Assembly (NCBI GenBank): GCA_049300435.1
Contig: JBAQJS010000145.1
Location: 13,044 to 77,043 of the forward strand
DNA from: Candidatus Acidiferrales bacterium
GTDB lineage: Bacteria; Acidobacteriota; Terriglobia; Acidiferrales; UBA7541
Length of the DNA: 64,000 nucleotides
Direction: 5' to 3'
The notes beneath the pieces are model-generated. The model saw only the letters and a list, made by a program, of their open reading frames with translations, made no database searches and was not told the DNA's origin. Of this stretch, positions 1,678-55,880 are shown piece after piece. The translations under genes were made by a program, and so were the position numbers. The stretch's first letter is position 1. The number at the start of each line of letters is the position of its first letter.

Positions 1678-2574
1678 CTAATGCTGCACTCCGCCGCGAT
1701 CGAGGTATTTCACCAGCAGCACTTCATTGCCGTCTTCGTTGTAGATCAGTTCGTCCACCAGCTTTTGCGCCAGCAGGATTCCGTATCCGCCCGGGCGCAT
1801 CCCGCGGGCCTCGCGATACACCGCGTGGCGAATGGGATCGTCAATCGGATTCGCCACGGCGGCGTGCTGAATTTCATCCAGCGTGAAACCCGCGCCGGGA
1901 TCCTTGATCCGGCAGAGTACCATCCGCCGCGAGCGCACGTAGGAAATCTGCACGTACTGGTCCGGCTGGAATTTCCCGCCGTGTTCCATGGCGTTCAGCA
2001 GGATTTCGCGAAACGCGGTGGCCACCGCATTGCTTTCCGTTTCCGGTAGGTCGGCAATCTCGTGCAGGAATTGGATCAGCCGGTCGGCCGTGGTGCGGTC
2101 GCAACGCACCACCACGCGAATCCATTCCGGCGTTGCGGACACCACCTCGATCCCGTCGTCCCAGCAAGGCTTCTCGGTCGCGAGGCGCACCATTTCCGCC
2201 AGCGCTGCCAGCGAAAACGGCTTGGAGAAATAGCTGAAGGCGCGCTCGCGCATCGAATCAATCACGTAGGAAGGCGCGCTTTCATCCGTCAGGATAATCA
2301 GCCGCGTATGCGGCCGCGCCATGCGCAATTTACGGAGCAATTCCACGTCGTCTTTTCCGGAAGTTTTTTCGCTGGTCAGGATCAGATCGAAGTGGGTCGC
2401 TTCGGCCAGCGCCAGCGCGGTGCGATTGTCCGGCGCGTGGCGGATGCTCCATTCCAGGGGATCGAGCACGGTCGCGAGAAACGCGCGCGTCGCATCGTCC
2501 GCGTCAATGAGCAACGCTTTCTTGATGGGAAAAGGCTTAGCTGCGAGTTGCGAGGGGGAACACATCATTGCCAC
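1678..2574 (-). CDS. Response-regulator receiver domain fused to an HATPase_c/RsbW-like ATP-binding domain
   Basis: Receiver signatures KKALLIDADD, FDLILTS and FSKPF. C-terminal half has an N-box-like ILLNAMEHGG and a G-box-like KDPGAGF. Confidence 0.7.
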   Translation of the reverse strand: MAMMCSPSQLAAKPFPIKKALLIDADDATRAFLATVLDPLEWSIRHAPDNRTALALAEATHFDLILTSEKTSGKDDVELLRKLRMARPHTRLIILTDESAPSYVIDSMRERAFSYFSKPFSLAALAEMVRLATEKPCWDDGIEVVSATPEWIRVVVRCDRTTADRLIQFLHEIADLPETESNAVATAFREILLNAMEHGGKFQPDQYVQISYVRSRRMVLCRIKDPGAGFTLDEIQHAAVANPIDDPIRHAVYREARGMRPGGYGILLAQKLVDELIYNEDGNEVLLVKYLDRGGVQH

Positions 2575-25706: not shown

Positions 25707-26037
25707 AGCATAGCAGAAAACGCCGGGCGGGGTATGCGCCGAAGGTACCGCGCGGGAAAACCCGGGTTTGGCGGTGCAAGTGGCTTAGATTCAGGGCGGT
25801 AGCAGCGGAACGGGAAGGGCGGTCGTTTCCGTTGGCCGCAAACCCTGGTACAGGGGTTCAGCCGCCACGAACGCGGCCTGAGCGCAGATGCGTCGGTTGC
25901 TGCATGCTCGCGGAGCGTCGTGCTAGGCTCTGCTGCGACTGGCGGACGATGGTGGAAACTGCACTGCGGGCTCGGTGTGAGGGCGTTTGACCGTGCGCGG
26001 GCGGGATGTTATAAACGAGTTAAGTCTTTCCGCGGTG

Positions 26038-26113
26038 GGGCCGTAGCGCAGTTGGGAGCGCGCCTCGATGGCATCGAGGAGGTCACGGGTTCGAACCCCG
26101 TCGGCTCCACCAT
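26038..26113 (+). tRNA. tRNA-Ala (anticodon GGC), CCA encoded
   Basis: 76-nt cloverleaf folded by hand. Acceptor GGGGCCG/CGGCTCC with the G3:U70 Ala identity pair, D stem GCGC/GCGC, anticodon stem CCTCG/CGAGG with loop ATGGCAT, T arm ACGGG-TTCGAAC-CCCGT. Confidence 0.9.
26095..26113 (+). repeat. attL core (3' end of tRNA-Ala)
   Basis: AACCCCGTCGGCTCCACCA, identical to 44464-44482. Confidence 0.8.
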
Positions 26114-26234
26114 TTGAAGAAATCAAAGACGTTACCTCAGAAAGCCGCTAACTGTTACCACGTACTGTTGCCACATTTGCATTTTCCTCTTGCATTCAAA
26201 CATGAATCTTTCACGCTCTGCGAGGAAAACAGAT

Positions 26235-27476
26235 ATGGCGCACTACACACTCATCGCACGCATCAACGCCGGCAACGGAAAATTTCCCTTCATGAATGTG
26301 CAGTTCTCGAAAAATCATCGTCCGATTCCCATAGAAGGAGCAACGTATTACCTCCGTCCGACGAGTCGCGCGAAACGCACACCCATCAGAATTGGCAAAG
26401 ATGTCGCGGTGGCTCACACTGCGATGATCAACATGGACGATGGCCGACCACTCGAACGCCCTGCCGAGCGAGAGGCACATCCGCCGTTGGTGGTTGCCAG
26501 TACGGTGCCTCGAAAGACGGTTGAGGATAGCGCGCGTGAATACATCCAACGCAGCAAGCAGAAATCGCGCAAGACGTACCTCGGCTACCGCACAGCCGTC
26601 AACCTATTTGTCGCAAGCTGCAAGAAAACCTTCTTCGACGAAATTTGCCGCGATGACATGCTCGACTTTCTGCACGAGTTGCGGACACGCCCCTCCGAAG
26701 CGACGGGAGCACCGATCGGCGAATCCACTGTATTCAACTATTTCCTGAAGACCATGGTTTTCCTGAACGACCGTGGCATCGGCAAGTACGTTGCGAGAGA
26801 GGACTGGGTGCAGAAGAAGGATTGGCCGATCAATGTGGACAAGCGGAACAAGAACAAGAAATATGCGACCTACACGGACCAAGAAGTCGCCGCCATGCTC
26901 AGTGTCGCGGACAACATCGGGGAGGCTCTCATCCGTTTTCTCGTTGGGACTGGCTTCCGCATCGGCGAAGCTGCGGTTGCTGAGTGGGCTGACGTCAATT
27001 GGGAGGAGAAGACCGTGTCGGTTCGCTTTAAGCCGAGGCTCGGTTTCAAGCCCAAGGACTATGAAGAACGAACCGTCGCGGTCAGCGACACTCTACTTGC
27101 CTGCCTTAAGAAATATCGCGTCAACGCGCTGGACGACGAGCTGATTTTCCCGTCTCCCGCGACACGAACGGTGGACAAGCACTTAGACCGTATCGTCAAT
27201 GATCTGATCCACAAAGCGAAGGTGGCGGGTTATACGGTTGATAAACCGGAGAAACCCTGCCATGCCTTCAGGGTATTGCACGCCACGCGGCGGCATCAGA
27301 ATGGAGTTGACATCGAAACCTTGCGGCAGGAACTTGGGCATTCCGATATCACAACGACTCAAATCTACTTGCGCACGGCCAACACAAAATCCGACAAACA
27401 TCGTGCCCGCATCAATGAGGCCGATAAGTTCTCCATCATCCCGAGTCACAGGCCTTTCCTTGTCGCAAGGCGGTAG
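26235..27476 (+). CDS. int: Tyrosine recombinase / phage-type integrase
   Basis: TGFRIGEAAV (Arg box), HAFRVLHATR (HxxR) and LGHSDITTTQIYL (catalytic Tyr). Start at ATG 26235 with GAGGAAAA upstream. Adjacent to the tRNA. Confidence 0.85.
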   Translation: MAHYTLIARINAGNGKFPFMNVQFSKNHRPIPIEGATYYLRPTSRAKRTPIRIGKDVAVAHTAMINMDDGRPLERPAEREAHPPLVVASTVPRKTVEDSAREYIQRSKQKSRKTYLGYRTAVNLFVASCKKTFFDEICRDDMLDFLHELRTRPSEATGAPIGESTVFNYFLKTMVFLNDRGIGKYVAREDWVQKKDWPINVDKRNKNKKYATYTDQEVAAMLSVADNIGEALIRFLVGTGFRIGEAAVAEWADVNWEEKTVSVRFKPRLGFKPKDYEERTVAVSDTLLACLKKYRVNALDDELIFPSPATRTVDKHLDRIVNDLIHKAKVAGYTVDKPEKPCHAFRVLHATRRHQNGVDIETLRQELGHSDITTTQIYLRTANTKSDKHRARINEADKFSIIPSHRPFLVARR

Positions 27477-47278: not shown

Positions 47279-47671
47279 TCAGCCGGCGACGGTTTGCGGC
47301 GTGAACGCGGGGACTTCAACCAGGCTGCATCCGAGGACGAACAAGGGATGCGGGGCGACGCGGCCCCAGCGAGTTAGTTCGAATTTTGCGCGCAGGAAAC
47401 GAATTTCCGGCTTGAGCGAAAGATCCAGAACCTGGCGCGTCTCGCCGCGATAGAAGCGCTGAGGCATCTTCAGCAGCGGCATTTTTCCCCAGTCCTGCCC
47501 GTCGGCGGAGCCCCAGATGGAAATGTCCACGGATTCCTGTTCGAGCTGCGCGGTGATCTCCAGAAAGCAGAGGAACGTGCGGGTGTGGCTGGAGGCGATT
47601 TCTACGGCTTGGCCTTCCCCGCTGGCGGTGAGGCGGGTGCCTGCGGGAATCAGCGCGAATTCCGCGGCCAT
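47279..47671 (-). CDS. Hypothetical protein
   Basis: 130-aa ORF with balanced composition (DISIWGSADGQDWGKMPLLKMPQRFYRGETRQVLDL). No motif recognised. Confidence 0.45.
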   Translation of the reverse strand: MAAEFALIPAGTRLTASGEGQAVEIASSHTRTFLCFLEITAQLEQESVDISIWGSADGQDWGKMPLLKMPQRFYRGETRQVLDLSLKPEIRFLRAKFELTRWGRVAPHPLFVLGCSLVEVPAFTPQTVAG

Positions 47672-47785
47672 CGGCGTTCTCCTGGGCGGCTGCGCGATTC
47701 TAGCACAGGTCCTGGGGAGTAATTTCGCGAACGCGGCGGGAACGGATCCGGCGGCGACGATCCGGGCTGGCGCGCAAAATTCGGA

Positions 47786-48985
47786 TCACGCGGATATTTT
47801 CAGTTTGGACAGGCGCTCGGCGGCGGCCTGGAAGGTTTTTTCGGTCTTGCAGAAAGTGAAGCGCAGGTGGGTGCGGCCGTCGGCGGGGTCGCGATAGAAA
47901 CTGGAGCCGGGAACGGCGGCGACGCCGATTTCGGTGACGAGATATTTCGCGAAGGCGACATCGTCGGGGAAACCGAACGCGGAAATGTCGGTCATGATGT
48001 AGTAGGCGCCGCGCGGCTTGAAGCAACGAAAGCCCGCGCCGGTGAGGATTCCCAGGAGGCGTTCGCGGCGCTGCGCGTAATCACTCGCGAGGGTCGCGTA
48101 ATATTCCGGCGGGGATTGCAGCGCGATGGCGCCCGCTTCCTGCAACGGAGCGGCGGCGCCGACGGTGAGAAAATCGTGCACTTTGCGGATGGCGGCCGTT
48201 ACTTCAGGCGCGGCGATGGCCCAGCCGACGCGCCAGCCGGTGACGCTGTAGGTTTTCGAGAGCGCGTTGATGGTGATGGTCCGGTTGCGCATGCCGTCGA
48301 GCGTGGCCATGGAAATGTGCCGCGCGCCGTCGTAGAGCATGTGCTCGTAGATTTCGTCGGTAATGGCGTAGGCATTCCAGCGCAGGCAAAGCTCGCGGAT
48401 CTGTTCGAATTCGGTGCGCTCGAAAACCTTTCCGGTGGGATTATTGGGCGTATTGAGAATGATGGCTTTGGTTTTGGGGCCGAAGGCCGCGGCGAGCTCT
48501 TGCGGATCGAACGTCCAATCGGGCGCGTGCAGCTTCACGAAACGCGGCGTGGCGCCGGAAAGAATCGCGTCCGGGCCGTAATTCTCGTAGAACGGCTCGA
48601 AGACCACGACTTCGTCGCCGGGATTGACGATGGCCAGCATGGAGGAAATCATGGCTTCGGTGGAGCCGCAGCAGACGGTGATTTCGCGTTCGGGGTCAAT
48701 GGGGGCGCCGCTGGCGCGGGAGAAATTTTCGGCGATGGCGTTGCGCAGGGATTTCGAGCCCCAGGTGATGGCGTACTGATTCACGTCCGCGGCGATGGCT
48801 TCCTGCGCGGCGCGCTTGATGTGGGCGGGCGCAGGGAAATCGGGAAAGCCCTGCGAGAGATTGACGGCCTGATGCTTCAGAGCCAGACGCGTCATTTCGC
48901 GGATCACGGACTCGGTGAACTGCGCGGCTTTCGAGGAAAGGCGCGGACTAGTGGCCACGGCGGGCTGCGGCAGTGAAGGATTCAT
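47786..48985 (-). CDS. Class I/II pyridoxal-phosphate aminotransferase (MtnE/kynurenine-type)
   Basis: FTESVIREMTRLA..., NTPNNPTGKVF and the PLP-lysine box INALSKTYSVTGWRVGW. Start ATG 48985 overlaps the upstream gene end by 38 nt, so the start is uncertain. Confidence 0.85.
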   Translation of the reverse strand: MNPSLPQPAVATSPRLSSKAAQFTESVIREMTRLALKHQAVNLSQGFPDFPAPAHIKRAAQEAIAADVNQYAITWGSKSLRNAIAENFSRASGAPIDPEREITVCCGSTEAMISSMLAIVNPGDEVVVFEPFYENYGPDAILSGATPRFVKLHAPDWTFDPQELAAAFGPKTKAIILNTPNNPTGKVFERTEFEQIRELCLRWNAYAITDEIYEHMLYDGARHISMATLDGMRNRTITINALSKTYSVTGWRVGWAIAAPEVTAAIRKVHDFLTVGAAAPLQEAGAIALQSPPEYYATLASDYAQRRERLLGILTGAGFRCFKPRGAYYIMTDISAFGFPDDVAFAKYLVTEIGVAAVPGSSFYRDPADGRTHLRFTFCKTEKTFQAAAERLSKLKISA

Positions 48986-51263
48986 TCTTCGGACCTCGCG
49001 CGGATTGCGGCTCATCCAGCTTGCGCCCATATAACCTACGATAGATGTCCGCGTTGCGCGTAACGATTTCGACGTAGTCGCGCGTTTCGGTGAAAGGGAT
49101 GGAATCCACGAATTCAGCGGGCTCGCGATAGGTCTGGCCCGCGGTCCAGAAGGAGACGCGGTCTTCTCCGGCATTGTAAGCGGCGAGCGCCGATTCCACG
49201 TTGCCGAAATTCCGCTGCAACCCGGCGAAATAAATGGTGCCGATGCGGATATTGTAATCCGGTTCGAAGAGCATGGGTGTGGAGTAGCGCACTTTGGCCT
49301 GCTTGGCGAAGCGGCGCGCCGTCTTCGGCAGAAGCTGCATCAGGCCGAAGGCGTTGGCGTGCGAGCGCGCCTCGGGATCGTAGGCGGACTCCTGGCGGAT
49401 GAGCCCGGCGGTCAGCATGGGATCCACGCCGGCGCTGGAGGAGCGCGTGACGATGGAGGACTCGAAAGGCATGGCGTAGGCAGTGAGCCATACCTCGCGC
49501 GGAACTTCGTTGAAAGGACGCCACTCGAGCTGCGGATAAATCTGGCGCACGGTGACGATGGCGGCGCCCACGTGCCCGGCATTCACGGCTTCCTGCGCGG
49601 CTTCGAGCAGCAGGCGGGGCTCACGGGTCGCGGCAAAGGCGGCACGCAATTCGAGTTCGGCGGAAGCGTCAAAGGCGATGGAGCGGAGCGCGTCGGCGCG
49701 CGCCTGGCGGCCCGCCGCAGCGGCCGGAATCGTCGGGCCGAGGGTCAGCGCGGGAAGCACCGGCGGAATCGTTGCGAGGACGTCCGCATCGGCGGCTGGA
49801 CCCGGACCGAGGGCGCGCAGGCGCTTGGCCGCGGCAGCCTGAAAATAATTCTCCGGGAAGCGTTCCTGCAATTTCGTGTAGTAGGTGCGCGCGAGGGCGG
49901 AGTTCCCTGCTTCCTCGGAAAGGCGGCCGAGCCAATAGAGGGCGTCAGGCGAAAATTGCGAGCCGGGAAAACGGCGCAGATGTTCCGCGAGATCGGCGGG
50001 CGCCTCCGGCTCGCGCTTCAGGACCGCCGCCCAGGTGTAGCGCCACTGCGCGGGAAGCGCTTCGGCGGATGACGGAAAATTATCGGAGAGGCGCTTGTAG
50101 TAGGTGGCGGCGCGGTCGCGCTCGAGCATCACCCAGTAATAATTCCCGGCGAGGAAGAGCGCCGATTCGGACCAGCGGCTGTCCGGAGCGCGCGCCACAG
50201 CGGACTCCACCGCGGCGACCATCTGCGCTTCGGAGGGGCGGTCGCGATAGTAATTGGCGATGGAATAGTAACGCTCGGCGTCCACGTCCGGGTCGGTGAT
50301 GCTGAGGGCGGAGATTTCGGAGACTCCAGCGCCCAGCGCGACGCCGCATTCCAGGATGCGCAGCTCGGCGCGTTCACGGTCGGCGCCGGTCAACTGCGGC
50401 AGCAGGTGCGAGTATTCGCTGCGCGCGTCGCCCCACTGATGGCTCATGAATATCGTGGAAGCATGTTCGATCTGCTGTTCGACCGGGATGGCGGGAAGCT
50501 TGTCGCCGAGAGAGCTGCGCAGAAAGGCAAGCTTCTCGCCGGCTTCGCGGGCCTGCTCGTCCAACGGGAAACGCAAATAGATCGTCTGGTAATCGCCGGC
50601 CGCTTGCAGCAGTTGCGCGGATTGTTCACGGGCTTCGGCGCGCAGGAAAAGCAGAGCGGGCTTTTCCCTGGCCGGCGGGTAAGCGTCGAGGGCGGTGAGA
50701 ATTTCCTGCGGCTTACCGAGCGCGAGTGCGGCCACGCCCAGAGATTGCAAGACTTCGTCGGTGATCACCGAATCGGGGTAGTCCTTGCGAAATTCCTCGA
50801 GTTGCGCCAGAGCTTCGGCGTTGTGGTTGAGCGCCAGATTGGTTTGCGCGCTCCAGTAGAGCGCGTAGTCGCGCAGCAACGGGTCGCCTTGTGCGATCTT
50901 CAGCCACTTTGCGGACTGCGCGTAGTGCTCCTTCCCGTAATCGTAATATCCCAGGGCGAGCGCGGCGCGAGCACCCAGCGCGCCGGAGGGCTTGCGCATG
51001 GCCAGGGCGCTCAGCTTCGCGTAGGCCACCGCGGGATTTTTCTTCTTCAGGGCGCGAGACAGTTCTTCGAGCTGCTTAGCAGCGGGCGTTGCGGAGGGGC
51101 GAGTGGCGGGGACGGCTGTGGACTTCTTCGCGTGATGTGAAGGGGTCTTCTGGGATGGCGCGGGCGCGGATTGTGGCGCCGCGAAAGCCGCCGGCAAACA
51201 CACCACGACCGAGAACACGAATAGAACAGCGATTCCGCGAATCACAGGGCCGAAGAACCTCAT
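48948..51263 (-). CDS. slt: Soluble lytic murein transglycosylase (Slt70-like): superhelical TPR-like N-domain plus SLT domain
   Basis: Signal peptide, long alpha-helical repeat region, and C-terminal SLT domain LTAGLIRQESAYDPEARSHANAFGLMQL...AYNAGEDRV. Confidence 0.8.
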   Translation of the reverse strand: MRFFGPVIRGIAVLFVFSVVVCLPAAFAAPQSAPAPSQKTPSHHAKKSTAVPATRPSATPAAKQLEELSRALKKKNPAVAYAKLSALAMRKPSGALGARAALALGYYDYGKEHYAQSAKWLKIAQGDPLLRDYALYWSAQTNLALNHNAEALAQLEEFRKDYPDSVITDEVLQSLGVAALALGKPQEILTALDAYPPAREKPALLFLRAEAREQSAQLLQAAGDYQTIYLRFPLDEQAREAGEKLAFLRSSLGDKLPAIPVEQQIEHASTIFMSHQWGDARSEYSHLLPQLTGADRERAELRILECGVALGAGVSEISALSITDPDVDAERYYSIANYYRDRPSEAQMVAAVESAVARAPDSRWSESALFLAGNYYWVMLERDRAATYYKRLSDNFPSSAEALPAQWRYTWAAVLKREPEAPADLAEHLRRFPGSQFSPDALYWLGRLSEEAGNSALARTYYTKLQERFPENYFQAAAAKRLRALGPGPAADADVLATIPPVLPALTLGPTIPAAAAGRQARADALRSIAFDASAELELRAAFAATREPRLLLEAAQEAVNAGHVGAAIVTVRQIYPQLEWRPFNEVPREVWLTAYAMPFESSIVTRSSSAGVDPMLTAGLIRQESAYDPEARSHANAFGLMQLLPKTARRFAKQAKVRYSTPMLFEPDYNIRIGTIYFAGLQRNFGNVESALAAYNAGEDRVSFWTAGQTYREPAEFVDSIPFTETRDYVEIVTRNADIYRRLYGRKLDEPQSARGPKNESFTAAARRGH

Positions 51264-51282
51264 TCTGATTATCTTTTATATC

Positions 51283-52161
51283 TTAATGCCGCAAGACAGG
51301 CGAGGGATACGGATATTCCCCGAGGGCGTTGGCGTCGCCATCGGCGAGGATTTGCACCATCCAATCGTAGAAATAATCCACGGGATGGTCCTGAATGGCG
51401 CGAAAGCGCCGGTCGTATTCCTTGCGGGCCTTATCAATGTCAACGCGCAGCCTGGCGCAAAGGTCCTTATGTTCGCGCCCCAGACGAACTTCCTTCGGCT
51501 GCAATAATTTGATGTCCTGCATGGCCACTTTGGCCACGCGGTTGGCGCGGCGATGCAGTTCCTGCTCTTCCTTGGGGAGCGCGCCAACGTCGAAAGCCTC
51601 TTCGGCGGCGAGTTCTGCCTCGGCCAGAACCGCTTCGGGGGGCGCGGGAGCAGCGTCGGCGGCGGCCGCGGGAGCTGCGCCCAGCACTTCTTCAGGCTCT
51701 TCGACCCATTCGAGTTCCGGCTCGGGCGCCGCGGGAACGGCTGCCGCAGCGGGAACCTCCGGCTCTTCTTCCGCGGCCTCGAGAGCTTCCTCTTCCACCG
51801 CGACAGATGAGGGCGCGGAGGACTGCTCGTCCCCGGACGAATGCTGCTCGCGCGGGTTCAGCGCCACGGCCACAAAATTCGAGAGGACGGACAGCCCCGC
51901 GGCCAGCGCGGCGGCAGCGGTCTGCGCGCGCAGCAGCGCCGGCAAAGCGTTGCTGGGACGGCTGGAACCGCAGGCCGCGACTAAATCCGCGTAGGCGTGA
52001 TGCAACTCGTCGGCGGTGCGCTGCAGCGGCGCGAGGTTGTCGCGCAGAGCGCGGGATACCGCCTCTTCCAGGGCGTGCTCGAGCGAGGATTGCCTGGGAG
52101 CCAAAGGAATCGTTGCCTCTTCTGGATTATGGAAACGGTAATTGGGGGTGTCAACCAACAT
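51283..52161 (-). CDS. Hypothetical protein with acidic Ala/Glu/Pro-rich centre and conserved-looking C-terminal domain
   Basis: C-terminus LHRRANRVAKVAMQDIKLLQPKEVRLGREHKDLCARLRVDIDKARKEYDRRF.... Start ATG 52161 chosen (MLVDTPNYRF). Confidence 0.45.
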   Translation of the reverse strand: MLVDTPNYRFHNPEEATIPLAPRQSSLEHALEEAVSRALRDNLAPLQRTADELHHAYADLVAACGSSRPSNALPALLRAQTAAAALAAGLSVLSNFVAVALNPREQHSSGDEQSSAPSSVAVEEEALEAAEEEPEVPAAAAVPAAPEPELEWVEEPEEVLGAAPAAAADAAPAPPEAVLAEAELAAEEAFDVGALPKEEQELHRRANRVAKVAMQDIKLLQPKEVRLGREHKDLCARLRVDIDKARKEYDRRFRAIQDHPVDYFYDWMVQILADGDANALGEYPYPSPVLRH

Positions 52162-52252
52162 TACCGAAGCGCGTGCCTGCCAGACAGCGGTCGGTCCGAC
52201 TCCGCGGCAATTCGACCTCGCGGACGGCGCGCAGACGCGCTCGCTTCGCATT

Positions 52253-52783
52253 TCAGAGCAGCCGTTGTATCTCCGCCTCGATGACTTTCGTGTACTCGAA
52301 TCCGATTACTTTGTAACGCAGCACGCCATGCCGATCGTACAGCATGGTCGTCGGCAAGCCCTGGATCGGGCCGAATTTTTCGGCAAGATCATCGGTGGCG
52401 ACAACAAGGGGATAACGAACGCCAATTCTACGAGCAAACCTTTCGGGATTTTCCGTATCCGCCATTACCGCGGACTTCAGACCGATGACAGCAAATCCTT
52501 GCCGATGGTAGCGGTCCGCCAGTTTCTGGTAGCCGGGCATCTCTTTCTTGCACGGCTGACACCAGGTAGCCCAAAAGTCAACCAGCACGACTTGGCCTCG
52601 AAAACTGGCGGACGAAATATCGCGTCCCGAGAGGTCCTTCATCGTGAAATCCGGTAGCTGCGAACCGATTTCACCGGCGCGGAGCGCAGCTTGCGTGGCC
52701 CGGGAAATGGGCGCAGGGCGCTGACGGCACCCAGTCATAGCAGCGCCGGCAAGTAAGATCAACATGACGTATCTCCCCATCAT
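52253..52783 (-). CDS. TlpA/ResA-like thiol:disulfide oxidoreductase lipoprotein
   Basis: Lipobox LLAGAAMTGC, thioredoxin motif FWATWCQPCKKEMP. The ATGA overlap with the upstream HMA gene stop supports co-transcription. Confidence 0.8.
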   Translation of the reverse strand: MMGRYVMLILLAGAAMTGCRQRPAPISRATQAALRAGEIGSQLPDFTMKDLSGRDISSASFRGQVVLVDFWATWCQPCKKEMPGYQKLADRYHRQGFAVIGLKSAVMADTENPERFARRIGVRYPLVVATDDLAEKFGPIQGLPTTMLYDRHGVLRYKVIGFEYTKVIEAEIQRLL

Positions 52784-53304
52784 TCCCTCTTCTGGACTTC
52801 GAGTATCAACAACTTGATGGCAGCCGACGGGTCCGTTTTCTTTTTCCCCGGAGGCTTCTTGTACAATTGGCCGCGCAACGTAACCTCTGTCGCGGAGCCG
52901 GCCAGCGCTTCGAGCTGTTTCGAAAGATCATTGGGCACAACCGGGAACGACCGATTGGGCGCAACCCGGAACATCAGTTCGCCCGCGGCGTTCTTGAACA
53001 AGGTTCCGCGCGCGACCATGTCCATTTCGGCAACGCTCACGCCGCTATCGTATGTGGCCTTGATGAGCTGGACAGGATCAATCTGTCCATCTTCCTTGGG
53101 CGTCACATCCACTTTTCCGTCAATCAAGCTGACTTCCACGTTTTGAACGCCAGACTGGCGTCCGAGGTGTTGTTTCACCCCGTATGCTCAAAAATTTCAG
53201 GTCATGCCTTCGACGCGCATTTCAATGTGCTTTACCTGGGCTTGCGTTACCGGCGTGAGCGCCGCGCCCAGCAACGCCAGCAGCGCAATTTTCCGTATGT
53301 CCAT
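52780..53304 (-). CDS. Secreted heavy-metal-associated (HMA) domain protein with TGA at both CxxC positions (candidate UxxU selenoprotein)
   Basis: AAGGAG-N5-ATG 53304. Signal peptide MDIRKIALLALLGAALTPVTQAQ, then VKHIEMRVEGMT-TGA(53197-53199)-NF-TGA(53188-53190)-AYGVKQHLGRQSGVQNVEVSLIDGKVDV, i.e. the GMTCxxC HMA motif with both Cys codons replaced by TGA. The frame otherwise stays open to TGA 52780-52782. Confidence 0.55.
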
Positions 53305-53318
53305 CGTTGCTCCTTTCA

Positions 53319-54296
53319 TTAGAGATGAAAGCGAAACTGCTGCGTGATTCCAAAACTGATGTGGCGGCGAACGGGCATGAACATCGCGCCCGTCGAGTGC
53401 GCGACATCCCAATCCATTCCAAGCCAGATATGCATGCCCGGCCGAACGCCCGCGTACGTGGTAATACCCGCGAGCAGCGCGTCGCCGCCGCTTCCAGGTT
53501 GATTTACTCCCGCGATCTGGTCGTCCTGCGAGTGGAGCCACGTGACTACAGGACCGATGAACCATTCGCGACTTGCGTCTCTGGCTTCATACGGCCGATA
53601 CGACAGCCAAAAACGGGATTCGACGCCGTCGCCGAGCTTGGTTCTCTGGATTCCCTGGGACCGGACGATCGCGTGAAAATCCTCATCGGCGACCAGGCGG
53701 CGCAGATTGAATAGTCCCGTGTACGTCCAATTCACGGCGGCAAAAAGATCTGTAGAGCCTGAGCCTGGCTGTAACGAGGCAGGCAATCGGGCGCCGTCAT
53801 CGTCCAGCAAATCGGTTCGTCCCGTCGGCAGTTTGGGGCCCAGCGTCATGGATGCTTGCGTCGTTCCGCGTTGCGAATCGCGCCGGTAAAATCGGTACTT
53901 TACCAGCAGCATCGTGTCGCCCAGACCTGTTCCACCTAGCGTGCCGCCTGTCCCGTGCATCCCAAATTCGTTGGTTACCAGCGGCAGCAGCACCGTGAGA
54001 TCGAAATTGCGATAGAAACCCCAAGTAAAGTTGAAATCACCCTCGTGTGAAAAAGTTGGCCTAGCCGTCGCCGGGATGCTCGCCGATGAAACGGGATCCA
54101 GACCGCGCGTCGTGAAAATGGAGTTGTAAGAAATGAGCGCCCCGCCCGGAAACAGCGTCGGAGCGGTTTCCGGCGCGACGCCTTGCGCTCTCGCTCTGGG
54201 AGCGGAAAACGACAAGGACAGCAACAACATCGCTTGCAACACTTTGCGTCGTCTCACAGTTTTCCTTCCAATGGAAAATGCCGGCGGCCCAAACAC
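53319..54296 (-). CDS. Outer-membrane beta-barrel protein (MetA-pathway/transporter-like)
   Basis: Signal peptide LQAMLLLSLSFSAPRARAQ, alternating beta pattern, aromatic C-terminus GITQQFRFHL. Its TAA stop is the TAA of the TAATG junction at 53317-53321. That ATG (53319) is an in-frame alternative start 5 codons upstream of the HMA start chosen here (53304). Confidence 0.55.
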   Translation of the reverse strand: MFGPPAFSIGRKTVRRRKVLQAMLLLSLSFSAPRARAQGVAPETAPTLFPGGALISYNSIFTTRGLDPVSSASIPATARPTFSHEGDFNFTWGFYRNFDLTVLLPLVTNEFGMHGTGGTLGGTGLGDTMLLVKYRFYRRDSQRGTTQASMTLGPKLPTGRTDLLDDDGARLPASLQPGSGSTDLFAAVNWTYTGLFNLRRLVADEDFHAIVRSQGIQRTKLGDGVESRFWLSYRPYEARDASREWFIGPVVTWLHSQDDQIAGVNQPGSGGDALLAGITTYAGVRPGMHIWLGMDWDVAHSTGAMFMPVRRHISFGITQQFRFHL

Positions 54297-54333
54297 ACGG
54301 GCGCGCCAAATCTATTTTTCGATTGGAAGGTGG

Positions 54334-54684
54334 CTAGATACGAAGCGGCGTGAGATCCGAAAGATCCAGGATGGGCGGAGCATGCGAGTGGGCAACGACG
54401 GCATACGCGGAAGAAATCTTGCTTGCGCGGTCGCCATTTTCAGATAGCACCGACAAGAGGGCGAACGGGATAGAGGCAACGCGGACCGCGGACGACTTCA
54501 CGAAGGGAGCGTGCATCGCCGGCATCGTCTTGCAACAATCCTGACTGTGGCCGTGCGACGAGCAGGGCATCGTATTGCAGCACTGCATAGCTTCCGCCGG
54601 CGAAGCCATCGCCGAACAATCGAACGCGTAAAGCGCCAGTGCGAGCGCGATGAACGCCATCAGGATTGATTTGGCAAGACGCAT
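54334..54684 (-). CDS. Small secreted Cys/His/Met-rich protein (putative metal-binding)
   Basis: MRLAKSILMAFIALALALYAF signal/TM, then CSAMASPAEAMQCCNTMPCSSHGHSQDCCKTMPAMHAP. First gene of the operon with the HMA and TlpA genes. Confidence 0.5.
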   Translation of the reverse strand: MRLAKSILMAFIALALALYAFDCSAMASPAEAMQCCNTMPCSSHGHSQDCCKTMPAMHAPFVKSSAVRVASIPFALLSVLSENGDRASKISSAYAVVAHSHAPPILDLSDLTPLRI

Positions 54685-54805
54685 CGAGATGAAGTTAGAC
54701 TGGTTCGCTTTCCAAGTCAACGCGAGTGTGATGGAGTTGCCATGCCGGAAGGCGCAGGCGGCAAACCACGAGCCTTGCAATGCTCGCAACGGAGAGAGAC
54801 CGGTT

Positions 54806-55306
54806 ATGCCGACAGCGGAGCAGATTCGCGAAATCTTGAAGTTGCGGCCGCACCCGATCGAGGGTGGGTACTTCGTCGAAACTTACCGCGGCGGCCAAAT
54901 GCTGCCGGCGAGCTTGCTGCCGGGCTATCCCGGGGAGCGGGCAATCTCGACGGCGATTTACTATTTGCTGACGCCGGACACTTTTTCGGCGATGCACCGG
55001 GTGCGCGGTGACGAAATGTTTCATTTTTATCTTGGCGACGAGGTGGAGATGCTGCAATTGCATTCCGACGGCACCGGCGAGGTGCTCTGGCTGGGGCAGG
55101 ACATCGCGGCGGGTATGCGATTGCAGCACACGGTGCCCGGAGGCGCGTGGCAGGGTTCGCGCGTGCGCGCGGGCGGCAAGTTTGCACTGCTGGGCACGAC
55201 CATGGCGCCGGGGTTCGAGTATGAGGACTACGAAACGGGGAAGCGGGCGGAGCTGGGCGCGCAGTTCCCTCGGTATGCGGAGATGATCGCGGCGTTGACG
55301 CGGTAG
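54806..55306 (+). CDS. Cupin-superfamily protein (DUF985-like)
   Basis: LKLRPHPIEGGYFVETYR...STAIYYLL...FSAMHRVRGDEMFHFYLGD...GGAWQG is characteristic of DUF985 cupins. Start ATG 54806. Confidence 0.75.
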   Translation: MPTAEQIREILKLRPHPIEGGYFVETYRGGQMLPASLLPGYPGERAISTAIYYLLTPDTFSAMHRVRGDEMFHFYLGDEVEMLQLHSDGTGEVLWLGQDIAAGMRLQHTVPGGAWQGSRVRAGGKFALLGTTMAPGFEYEDYETGKRAELGAQFPRYAEMIAALTR

Positions 55307-55526
55307 GATGCGAGCCGAACGGGGCAGGAAGCGATGGGCTGCAGTGCCCGGTCTGCCAGCGCCAGACCCGCCGCTACATGATCCTCTCCATCTACAGGCT
55401 TCTGTGAAAGCCCTCACCGAGCACCCCATCAGGCTTCCGTCGCCGGGAGCTGCACAGGAAGGAACCGCTTCGCAGGGCAGCGAATTGGCTGTCGTGCCAC
55501 GCGGTGGTATCCTAATAAGGACCGAC

Positions 55527-55880
55527 GGGGGCGCAACGGTTTCGACGGAAACTGTAGCGGCTCGAAGGCATGCCGGGACCCACCTCCCCGAAAGATGGTG
55601 GAACAACACAACTGGCAACTCACAGTTGGCACTCGCAGCCTAACTCAAATTAGGCTACGCGCTCCCCCAGGCGTTACCTACGCGCGTGGGTCGGGGCGTC
55701 ACACAGTAGGCTGGCTGTCGCGTTTCGGTCCGCAATGCGGCGGCGAGATCATCGGACTAGCTGGCAGCGCGTCTTGCCTGTTCTGAGCGCTGCTCGCGAA
55801 ACCAACGGAACGGGATAAGCATGTAGTCTTCGTGTTGCAAGGTTTCTCGGACGGGGGTTCAACTCCCCCCGCCTCCACCA
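55527..55880 (+). ncRNA. ssrA: tmRNA (SsrA)
   Basis: 5' GGGGGCGCAACGGTTTCGACGG and 3' GGACGGGGGTTCAACTCCCCCCGCCTCCACCA form the tRNA-Ala-like domain (G3:U pair). The tag reading frame ends ...GNSQLALAA-TAA (stop 55641-55643). Confidence 0.9.

Follow-up and report, generated by a model that had tools for sequence, protein, structure and literature searches.

A predicted two-selenocysteine protein with a heavy-metal-associated fold, encoded in a four-gene cassette of soil Acidobacteriota

Among the described systems closest to the gene examined here is NF041115 (UxxU_metal_bind), a family reviewed as a "putative mercuric reductase" whose UxxU motif holds two selenocysteine (Sec, U) residues and which was first predicted in the metagenome of an Olavius algarvensis symbiont (PMC13188914, PMC9312934). 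Predictions from the GOS metagenome include a Sec-containing "MerP" (PMC2398784), and a MerT/CopZ fusion selenoprotein (NF045683) and a UxxC E1-E2 family cation-transporting ATPase are likewise predictions (PMC2398784, PMC13188914). A UxxU diselenide motif is also reported for eukaryotic selenoprotein L (Shchedrina et al. 2007, as cited in PMC2398784). Here, we describe a gene from a 64,000-nucleotide stretch of DNA of a Candidatus Acidiferrales bacterium (GCA_049300435.1, contig JBAQJS010000145.1, positions 13,044 to 77,043; referred to as the window). This gene has TGA at both metal-ligand cysteine codons of the GMTCxxC motif of a heavy-metal-associated (HMA) domain.

An earlier note on the same DNA had put the gene forward as a candidate UxxU selenoprotein. 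That proposal is now supported by conservation of the TGA pair, by Sec/Cys pairs among relatives, by a fit to the consensus for bacterial Sec insertion sequences (bSECIS), and by a tRNA-Sec in a related genome. We consider it very probable that the gene encodes a genuine UxxU selenoprotein.

Two conserved TGA codons in a translated frame

The predicted selenoprotein gene and its landmarks lie at the following positions of the window.

52780..53304, minus strand: selenoprotein gene (predicted), 174 codons plus a TGA stop; the precursor consists of a signal peptide, an HMA domain with UxxU, and a C-terminal beta domain
53310..53315, minus strand: Shine-Dalgarno sequence AAGGAG, 5 nt 5' of ATG 53304
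53239..53304, minus strand: signal peptide, residues 1-22, read straight off the sequence, with cleavage predicted between TQA and Q
53197..53199, minus strand: UGA1, predicted Sec36, the first ligand in GMT-U-NF-U; TGA in 81/81 sequences
53188..53190, minus strand: UGA2, predicted Sec39, the second ligand; TGA in 81/81 sequences

Translation from ATG 53304 gives the signal peptide MDIRKIALLALLGAALTPVTQA, followed by QVKHIEMRVEGMT, an in-frame TGA, NF, a second in-frame TGA, and AYGVKQHLG. In nucleotides, the minus strand after the signal peptide MDIRKIALLALLGAALTPVTQA and the Q that follows it reads VKHIEMRVEGMT-TGA-AAT-TTT-TGA-GCA-TAC-GGG-GTG. The gene ends in TGA (52782-52780), which forms an ATGA overlap with the start codon of a TlpA-like gene. 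The start signal (AAGGAG-N5-ATG 53304), the coordinates of the TGAs, the 174-codon frame, and the ATGA overlap, all as described in the earlier note, were confirmed on the sequence. Sequencing error had been raised as a concern; an 8,358-nt contig in the Logan assembly of SRR28041854 is 100% identical to window positions 47515-55872, both TGAs included, and may come from the same reads. A promoter and terminator scan of positions 52000-55000 gave counts only at chance level.

A protein search returned 3,080 relatives at an E value of ≤0.001, part of them generic HMA proteins, and when one genome was scanned for each GTDB species, at least 171 genomes encoded a relative of the window protein. 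The DNA-level set consists of the best 80 loci, from 76 species-level assemblies; nearly all are metagenome-assembled genomes (MAGs) of Acidobacteriota/Terriglobia from soil and peat. TGA is present at both codons in 80/80 of these loci, within a motif, GMT-U-N[FY]-U-A[YF]G, that is otherwise intact, and no copy has any further frame disruption. The in-frame stops therefore recur at the same two codons rather than at varied positions, the pattern by which decay was to be recognized. The presence of TGA/TGA at exactly these two codons is far beyond chance.

The reading frame is also maintained upstream of the TGA pair. Start codons are ATG at 78 of the 80 loci and TTG at the other 2, all loci encode a signal peptide, and most have a GGAGG-type Shine-Dalgarno sequence ahead of the start codon. 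Among the homologous signal peptides the hydrophobic core is variable; the cleavage site (between AQA and Q) and the IKHIEMRVEGMT that follows are conserved. For the 11 codons that precede UGA1, nucleotide diversity is 0.028, 0.019, and 0.346 at the first, second, and third codon positions, respectively, an approximately 15-fold excess at the third position, and the ratio of third- to first/second-position diversity is 15 upstream of the TGAs and 6 downstream. Thr35 is invariant, yet all four of its codons are in use (31/23/15/12). The third-position bias before UGA1 indicates that the upstream segment is translated and shares its frame with the downstream segment.

Relatives with cysteine occur at both positions. 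Protein entries P0003-P0006, P0009, and P0010 read GMTCN[FY]CAFG, and a metagenome scan seeded with Cys forms recovered three DNA states: TGA/TGA, TGC/TGA, and TGC/TGC. The 106 complete gene copies comprise 93 UxxU, 10 CxxU, and 3 CxxC forms; TGC is found at the position of UGA1 in 13 members of one subclade and at that of UGA2 in the 3 CxxC forms only. The CxxU and CxxC forms thus supply, for each of the two positions, the Cys/Sec pairs that the earlier note suggested looking for. In a neighbor-joining tree of the 106 copies, every Cys-containing form falls inside a single 17-member subclade, with at least two origins of CxxC (L097 from UxxU neighbors and L081/L087 from CxxU neighbors). Because the Cys forms are nested in this one subclade, UxxU looks, from these sequences, to be ancestral within the family, and the Cys forms look like recent, secondary replacements of Sec by Cys.

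Two further features of the TGA pair were noted. The Phe codon between the UGAs (53191-53193, minus strand) is TTT in 80/80 loci though TTC is synonymous, which may reflect codon context for decoding two close UGAs. In public gene calls, the TGAs are translated as Trp (GMTWNFWAYG) in P0002, P0007, P0008, P0035, and P0087 and at loci L118 and L119, and two of the Trp-translated entries read on through the gene's real TGA stop (...QKEW...). The annotation pipelines evidently used genetic code 4 or 25 here, leaving spurious Trp sequences in protein databases.

A constrained RNA element after the second UGA

The 42 nt after the second TGA combine near-frozen synonymous sites with two adjacent hairpins, which had been named in the earlier note and are present where it placed them.

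53164..53181, minus strand: hairpin 1, GGGGUG-AAACAA-CACCUC, 15 nt past UGA1 and 6 nt past UGA2; -6.9 kcal/mol
53145..53163, minus strand: hairpin 2, GGACGCC-AGUCU-GGCGUUC, the best bSECIS candidate; -10.3 kcal/mol

Synonymous constraint is strong on codons +5 to +18 past UGA1 (YGVKQHLGRQSGVQ), as seen in the number of sequences that use the same codon.

Codon CGC: 81/81
Codon CAG: 81/81
Codon TCT: 79/79
Codon GGC: 80/81
Codon GTT: 79/81
Codon CAA: 80/80
Codon GTG: 81/81
Codon CAC: 70/70

Four-fold sites outside this block are free to vary (e.g., Val +20, with codon counts of 29/27/14/11). Third-position (synonymous) diversity averages 0.118 across the block (codons +5 to +18) and 0.433 outside it (Mann-Whitney p = 3e-6). 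The folding energy of the native 42 nt is -20.2 kcal/mol; synonymous recodings average -9.9, and only 0.2% of 2,000 such recodings were equally stable.

Hairpin 2 is paired in 99.8% of alignment cells, and every change seen in it preserves pairing (A-U to G-U, 15; G-U to G-C, 2; G-C to G-U, 1); the hairpin is identical in homologues of only 57-59% protein identity. The published bSECIS consensus describes a loop of 3-9 nt with G in the first two loop positions and a stem of 4-16 bp, located 16-37 nt from the UGA and with a minimum free energy (MFE) at or below -7.5 kcal/mol (PMC13188914). Hairpin 2 matches this consensus for UGA2, with the loop AGUCU, a stem of 7-8 bp, an energy of -10.3 kcal/mol, and a distance of 31 nt. 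Its loop follows the pattern N1-G-U-N-N2, in which N1 and N2 are able to pair. The nearly invariant synonymous block and the fit to the consensus bear out the suggestion that the stem-loop at 53145-53163 is a SECIS candidate.

Hairpin 1 lies 21 nt from UGA1 to its loop, within the consensus range. It is paired in 93.8% of alignment cells, and 1.3% of synonymous recodings are equally stable. In L119, A-to-C and A-to-G changes create a new C-G pair, and in L118 and the G-to-U/C-to-A variants a register shift restores a perfect 5-6 bp stem. The role of hairpin 1 is uncertain; it could serve UGA1 as a further SECIS-like element or act as a spacer. Hairpin 2 has three pairs and hairpin 1 has two that change on one side only with pairing preserved, and support for the two structures comes from these changes together with conservation, the frozen synonymous sites, and the recoding test. 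The hairpin core GCCAGTCTGGC, sought elsewhere, gave one occurrence, which is chance level.

Selenocysteine use has precedent in this phylum. Acidobacteria were listed as Sec users, with 3 families, in 2006 (PMC1794560), and Occallatibacter riparius has 3 selenoprotein genes (PMC12013277). In a related carrier MAG (locus L013, on the 973-kb contig CAWADX010000002.1), a tRNA-Sec lies 7.6 kb from that genome's own copy of the selenoprotein gene. It has the anticodon TCA (ARAGORN) and scores 65.8 bits with Rfam RF01852, against a threshold of 47 bits. This tRNA-Sec, at 2293-2391 (minus strand), is stand-alone, with an RND permease and a TPR/peptide-cyclase-like protein as its encoded neighbors and no sel genes beside it, and it is the single instance that ARAGORN found over all loci.

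An HMA fold in a conserved four-gene cassette

The predicted protein has two domains after the signal peptide.

53035..53235, minus strand: HMA domain, beta-alpha-beta-beta-alpha-beta, residues 24-90 (Pfam PF00403 at residues 29-83)
52783..53034, minus strand: C-terminal beta-rich domain, residues 91-174 (84 residues); no Pfam family

When Cys takes the place of both TGAs, PF00403 is matched at 35.8 bits against a cut-off of 24.8 bits, in agreement with the earlier assignment of an HMA domain, and the closest solved structures by sequence are the Cu(I) domains of ATP7B and CopA. The structure was modeled with AF2 on a Cys homologue (P0004) that is 66% identical to the window protein (mean pLDDT, 75; pTM, 0.71). 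The N terminus of the model adopts the HMA fold, the two ligand positions falling in the loop and helix that come after strand beta-1, with Foldseek matches to CopZ, Atx1, and MerP at a TMt of 0.64-0.77 and also to ATP7B. The C-terminal domain is modeled as six beta strands and one helix (block pLDDT, about 76-92) and in Foldseek weakly resembles YgiW, a periplasmic protein with an OB fold (1nnx; E 3.7e-3).

Three other genes accompany the predicted selenoprotein gene.

54334..54684, minus strand: small exported or anchored Cys/His/Met-rich protein, the first cassette gene; the likely start is the methionine of MRLAKS
53319..54296, minus strand: outer-membrane beta-barrel-type protein of the PF13557 family; another gene caller starts it at 54257
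52253..52783, minus strand: TlpA/ResA-like thiol:disulfide oxidoreductase with WCQPC; Pfam AhpC-TSA, Redoxin, and Thioredoxin

These four genes, all on one strand, are conserved across loci, and everything beyond them varies. In a tally of loci by gene family, the small Cys/His/Met-rich protein was found at 75 loci, the barrel at 101, the HMA selenoprotein at 109, and the TlpA/ResA-like protein at 98. A separate tally of gene positions over the 80 loci placed the barrel gene directly upstream of the selenoprotein gene in 80/80 and the TlpA-like gene directly downstream in 76/80, its motif always CxxC. The barrel protein matches Pfam Phenol_MetA_deg at 24.7 bits (cut-off, 22 bits), and the TlpA-like protein scores below the NCBIfam cut-offs for ResA and TlpA. 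The small protein, whose gene was missed by one gene caller, belongs to no Pfam or NCBIfam family. At 75 loci it shares the motif AMQCCxSMPCSSHGHHGQDCCKTMP...HAPP...PLRI, which is strikingly conserved, and it is probably itself metal-binding. Neighbors of the cassette include a MerR-family regulator at 8 loci and a CDF-type cation efflux gene at 9.

Some copies of the cassette have an unusual distribution. Four assemblies contain two gene copies each, on separate contigs or at separate positions (L019 and L045, L008 and L069, L075 and L077, and L047 and L054); in OY969555.1, for example, the copies lie at 4.26 Mb and 4.49 Mb. These are either paralogous cassettes or duplicated contigs, and L075 and L077 are identical over the compared region. 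Copies with approximately 70% identity to their acidobacterial counterparts (L047, L054, L066, and L074) occur in MAGs labeled Dormiibacterota and Limnocylindria (Chloroflexota), reflecting either mis-binned contigs or horizontal movement of the cassette. In the window, the GC content at third codon positions (GC3) is 0.63-0.65 in the cassette versus 0.72-0.77 in its neighbors; this low GC3 and the variable genomic context of the cassette would fit mobility.

Elsewhere in the window, a tmRNA gene (ssrA) at 55527-55880 (plus strand; tag GNSQLALAA; Rfam, 173.6 bits) lies approximately 740 nt from the start of the cassette, and a DUF985 cupin gene, divergent from the cassette, lies between the two. 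At 26037-27476, tRNA-Ala(GGC) is directly followed by a tyrosine integrase (PF00589). Over the approximately 17 kb past the integrase, to about 44700, open reading frames (ORFs) have a GC3 of 0.50-0.62 versus 0.70-0.81 in the flanking housekeeping genes, and the region at this tRNA-Ala is probably an integrated genomic island or prophage.

The best explanation, which taken whole we regard as likely, is that Sec occupies both HMA metal ligands of a protein that belongs to an envelope metal-handling cassette. Ribosomes would start at ATG 53304, and SelB with Sec-tRNA(Sec) would be drawn to UGA1 and UGA2, 9 nt apart, by the RNA element in the next 15-56 nt, with hairpin 2 (loop AGUCU) as the putative SECIS proper; conservation and the fit to the bSECIS consensus point to this decoding step. 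The precursor would then be exported through its signal peptide, and the mature periplasmic protein, composed of the HMA domain and the OB-like beta domain, would use its two selenolates to bind a soft metal ion, most likely Cu(I) and alternatively Hg(II), Ag(I), or Cd(II). The translationally coupled TlpA-like reductase probably holds the U-x-x-U pair in the reduced state, which would otherwise be lost to a diselenide in the oxidizing periplasm. The barrel and the small Cys/His/Met-rich protein would complete a self-contained envelope metal-handling module. We judge the case for this metal-chaperone and TlpA mechanism to be evenly balanced.

A more specific version joins three proposals, and we offer the combination tentatively, as doubtful. 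In it, the RNA would be a tandem recoding element, in which hairpin 1 sets SelB for UGA1 before the ribosome unwinds it and hairpin 2 acts on UGA2. The gene would encode a periplasmic bis-selenolate/diselenide chaperone for Cu(I) or another soft metal, with a dedicated TlpA reductant. Sec would be favored over Cys since a selenol (pKa of about 5) stays ionized and metal-binding in the acidic periplasm of soil and peat Terriglobia. Such an advantage, if real, would account for the predominance of UxxU (93/106 copies) and for the rarity and recency of the Cys forms.

Several points weigh against Sec insertion at both codons and the proposed metal-handling role. Hairpin 2 is 40 nt from UGA1, 3 nt outside the 16-37 nt range of the consensus, and hairpin 1 lacks the loop G in most sequences and reaches only -6.9 kcal/mol. 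The z-score of the single-sequence fold is only -1.84. No base pair in the alignment of either hairpin shows a double compensatory change, as the element is nearly invariant; of the structural support that was sought for a SECIS, conserved pairing and the consensus fit were thus obtained and strict covariation was not. CxxC forms keep hairpin 2 unchanged, though decay of the SECIS was expected in Cys forms. We read the retained hairpin as a fossil SECIS from recent conversion, and another role for it is possible; since the Cys forms are recent derivatives, this control is uninformative on hairpin function, although it does indicate that the change ran from Sec to Cys. Rfam reported no SECIS family, either in the whole window at the gathering threshold or in 53050-53350 by E value, but this null carries no information, since Rfam lacks a general model of bacterial SECIS elements. 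No selA, selB, selD, or selC was seen in the 64-kb window by tRNA scans and annotation of ORFs. A tblastn search of 1.65 Mb of locus DNA with unvalidated SelD and SelA baits also found nothing, which is a weak null given such baits and flanks that are effectively random. The model of the Cys homologue has low confidence around the metal-binding loop. Finally, whereas the data show the conserved UGA pair, a translated upstream region, constraint on the RNA, Sec/Cys pairs, the HMA fold, and linkage within the cassette, SelB dependence, periplasmic location, the identity of the metal, and the TlpA partnership are the parts of the account that we infer.

The alternative that survives best, though we think it unlikely, keeps the genuine UxxU selenoprotein and makes it a redox protein rather than a metal binder. 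A diselenide/selenol couple on an HMA scaffold would swap electrons with the TlpA-like protein, acting on an envelope substrate or in detoxification of oxidants or metalloids. In its favor, the gene is tightly and translationally coupled to that of a thioredoxin-fold reductase in 76/80 loci, catalogued bacterial selenoproteins are mostly redox enzymes with UxxC or CxxU, and the conserved four-gene core includes no metal transporter. However, all domain matches, by sequence and by structure, are to metallochaperones and metal-ATPase domains. Cys, His, and Met abound in the product of the first cassette gene, a composition typical of metal-binding proteins, and some loci have MerR-type regulators and a CDF transporter next to the cassette. 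The coupled reductase itself also fits a metal site, as TlpA-type proteins are generally known to reduce copper-site cysteines.

It is far less probable that the UGAs are real stops and that the product is a 132-residue protein initiated at GTG 53178, with or without a 35-residue leader peptide. This is exactly what gene callers annotate: the 132-residue fragment is the sole annotation by NCBI (P0001) and by other gene callers, most of the top protein-search matches are exactly 132 residues long, their genes having been called from the GTG shortly downstream of the second TGA, and this GTG is invariant in 81/81 sequences. However, a product of this length would be missing the signal peptide, strand beta-1, and the entire HMA metal-binding loop. 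The G-run abuts GTG 53178, so that no correctly spaced Shine-Dalgarno sequence precedes it, whereas the upstream 35 codons are in frame, have their own Shine-Dalgarno sequence and ATG, are under strong purifying selection, and include the invariant IKHIEMRVEGMT. In the Cys-form relatives, with TGC, the gene reads as a single continuous protein of 170-174 residues.

An equally slight probability attaches to the reading of UGA as a standard amino acid (Trp, Cys, or Gly), by suppression or a reassigned code and without Sec. Several database entries do show W at these positions (GMTWNFWAYG), their pipelines having applied code 4 or 25, and Sec machinery was not seen in the window. However, TGA is the commonest true stop among the long ORFs of the window (12/28) and also ends the selenoprotein gene itself, which excludes code reassignment. 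The homologous residue at both HMA metal-ligand positions is Cys, the canonical partner of Sec, the stretch downstream of the codons contains a SECIS-like element subject to selection at the RNA level, and a related carrier has a tRNA-Sec.

A pseudogene or a sequencing or assembly artifact, as two in-frame stops within 12 nt and a truncated annotation might suggest, has a negligible probability and is already refuted by the same state in 80/80 loci from 76 genomes of different projects with long and short reads, by the identical second assembly of the sample, by the lack of any other frame disruption in any copy, and by purifying selection on either side of the TGAs.

Comparison with known selenoproteins and metallochaperones

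A literature search found no published description of the window protein's family. The earlier note's remark that no characterized HMA protein with a double-Sec site was known needs qualification: the UxxU HMA-like family NF041115 and other HMA-type selenoproteins are already catalogued, as computational predictions.

NF041115 resembles the window protein in being HMA-like, in having Sec for both cysteines of CxxC, and in resting on bioinformatic prediction only. The window protein aligns to positions 2-47 of its profile (E 7e-9) and scores 35.7 bits against a cut-off of 95 bits, no better than its scores for CopZ and MerP. Unlike the 74-position profile of NF041115, the window protein has 174 residues, a signal peptide, and an extra beta domain of 84 residues. 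It is encoded in a distinct four-gene cassette of soil Terriglobia, whereas NF041115 comes from marine Deltaproteobacteria.

MerP (TIGR02052; 1afi, 1osd), which binds Hg(II), has the same layout of a signal peptide followed by one HMA domain with GMTCxxC and is periplasmic. It matches the window protein in fold (Foldseek) and in sequence (E 7e-9), at 36.1 bits against a cut-off of 92.55 bits. MerP lacks the C-terminal domain, however, and the core of the window cassette lacks merT, merA, and merR.

The best matches in both sequence and structure are to CopZ, Atx1, and the domains of Cu(I) ATPases, which share the ligand loop GMTCxxC (ATP7B domain 5, E 4.6e-29 for the whole chain; CopZ 2qif, TMt 0.75). 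Unlike the window protein, these are cytoplasmic, use Cys, and are single-domain proteins or parts of an ATPase. Scores with the CopZ models NF047957, NF033795, and NF033794 are 47.2, 42.2, and 28.8 bits, below cut-offs of 85-95 bits, and the window protein differs from the small cytoplasmic CopZ in its signal peptide and second domain.

The MerT/CopZ fusion (NF045683) and the UxxC ATPase have in common with the window protein the use of Sec in place of a metal-ligand Cys and a link to heavy-metal handling. Both are membrane proteins, in contrast to the window protein, and the ATPase contains just one Sec residue. The window protein matches NF045683 only over the HMA portion of the profile, at 33.5 bits against a cut-off of 375 bits. 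Selenoprotein L likewise has two Sec residues in a UxxU motif capable of forming a diselenide; it differs in its thioredoxin fold, its eukaryotic 3'-UTR (untranslated region) SECIS, and its lack of sequence kinship with the window protein.

TlpA-type proteins reduce copper-site cysteines, as in ScoI and CoxB of Bradyrhizobium. The genetic and functional pairing of a periplasmic TlpA-type thioredoxin with a client whose CxxC-type metal site it keeps reduced, known in general terms from that system, is a parallel for the window cassette. The client here would be an HMA selenoprotein rather than Sco or CuA, a partnership suggested by gene linkage alone.

If confirmed, these results would describe a widespread two-selenocysteine protein in a dominant soil phylum, with a relative encoded in at least 171 species-level genomes and UxxU in 80/80 loci examined. 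Because the entries seen hold either the 132-residue fragment or Trp at the Sec sites, selenium use by soil Acidobacteriota is probably under-counted. The family would provide a natural system for studying how bacterial SelB and a SECIS decode two UGAs just 9 nt apart. It would equally serve for the role of a bis-selenolate site in a metallochaperone fold, with a UxxU/CxxU/CxxC series in one clade for comparison. The conserved link to a TlpA-like protein, an outer-membrane barrel, and a Cys/His/Met-rich protein would define an uncharacterized envelope metal-handling module.

Together, scores below every curated cut-off and an extra domain, an operon context, a taxon, and a habitat of its own mark the window protein as a member of a distinct, uncurated family. 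Since Sec in place of Cys at HMA metal sites, UxxU included, has already been predicted in the literature, the family is an extension of known biology: it is new and uncurated but lies inside an already predicted kind of selenoprotein and does not represent a new principle.

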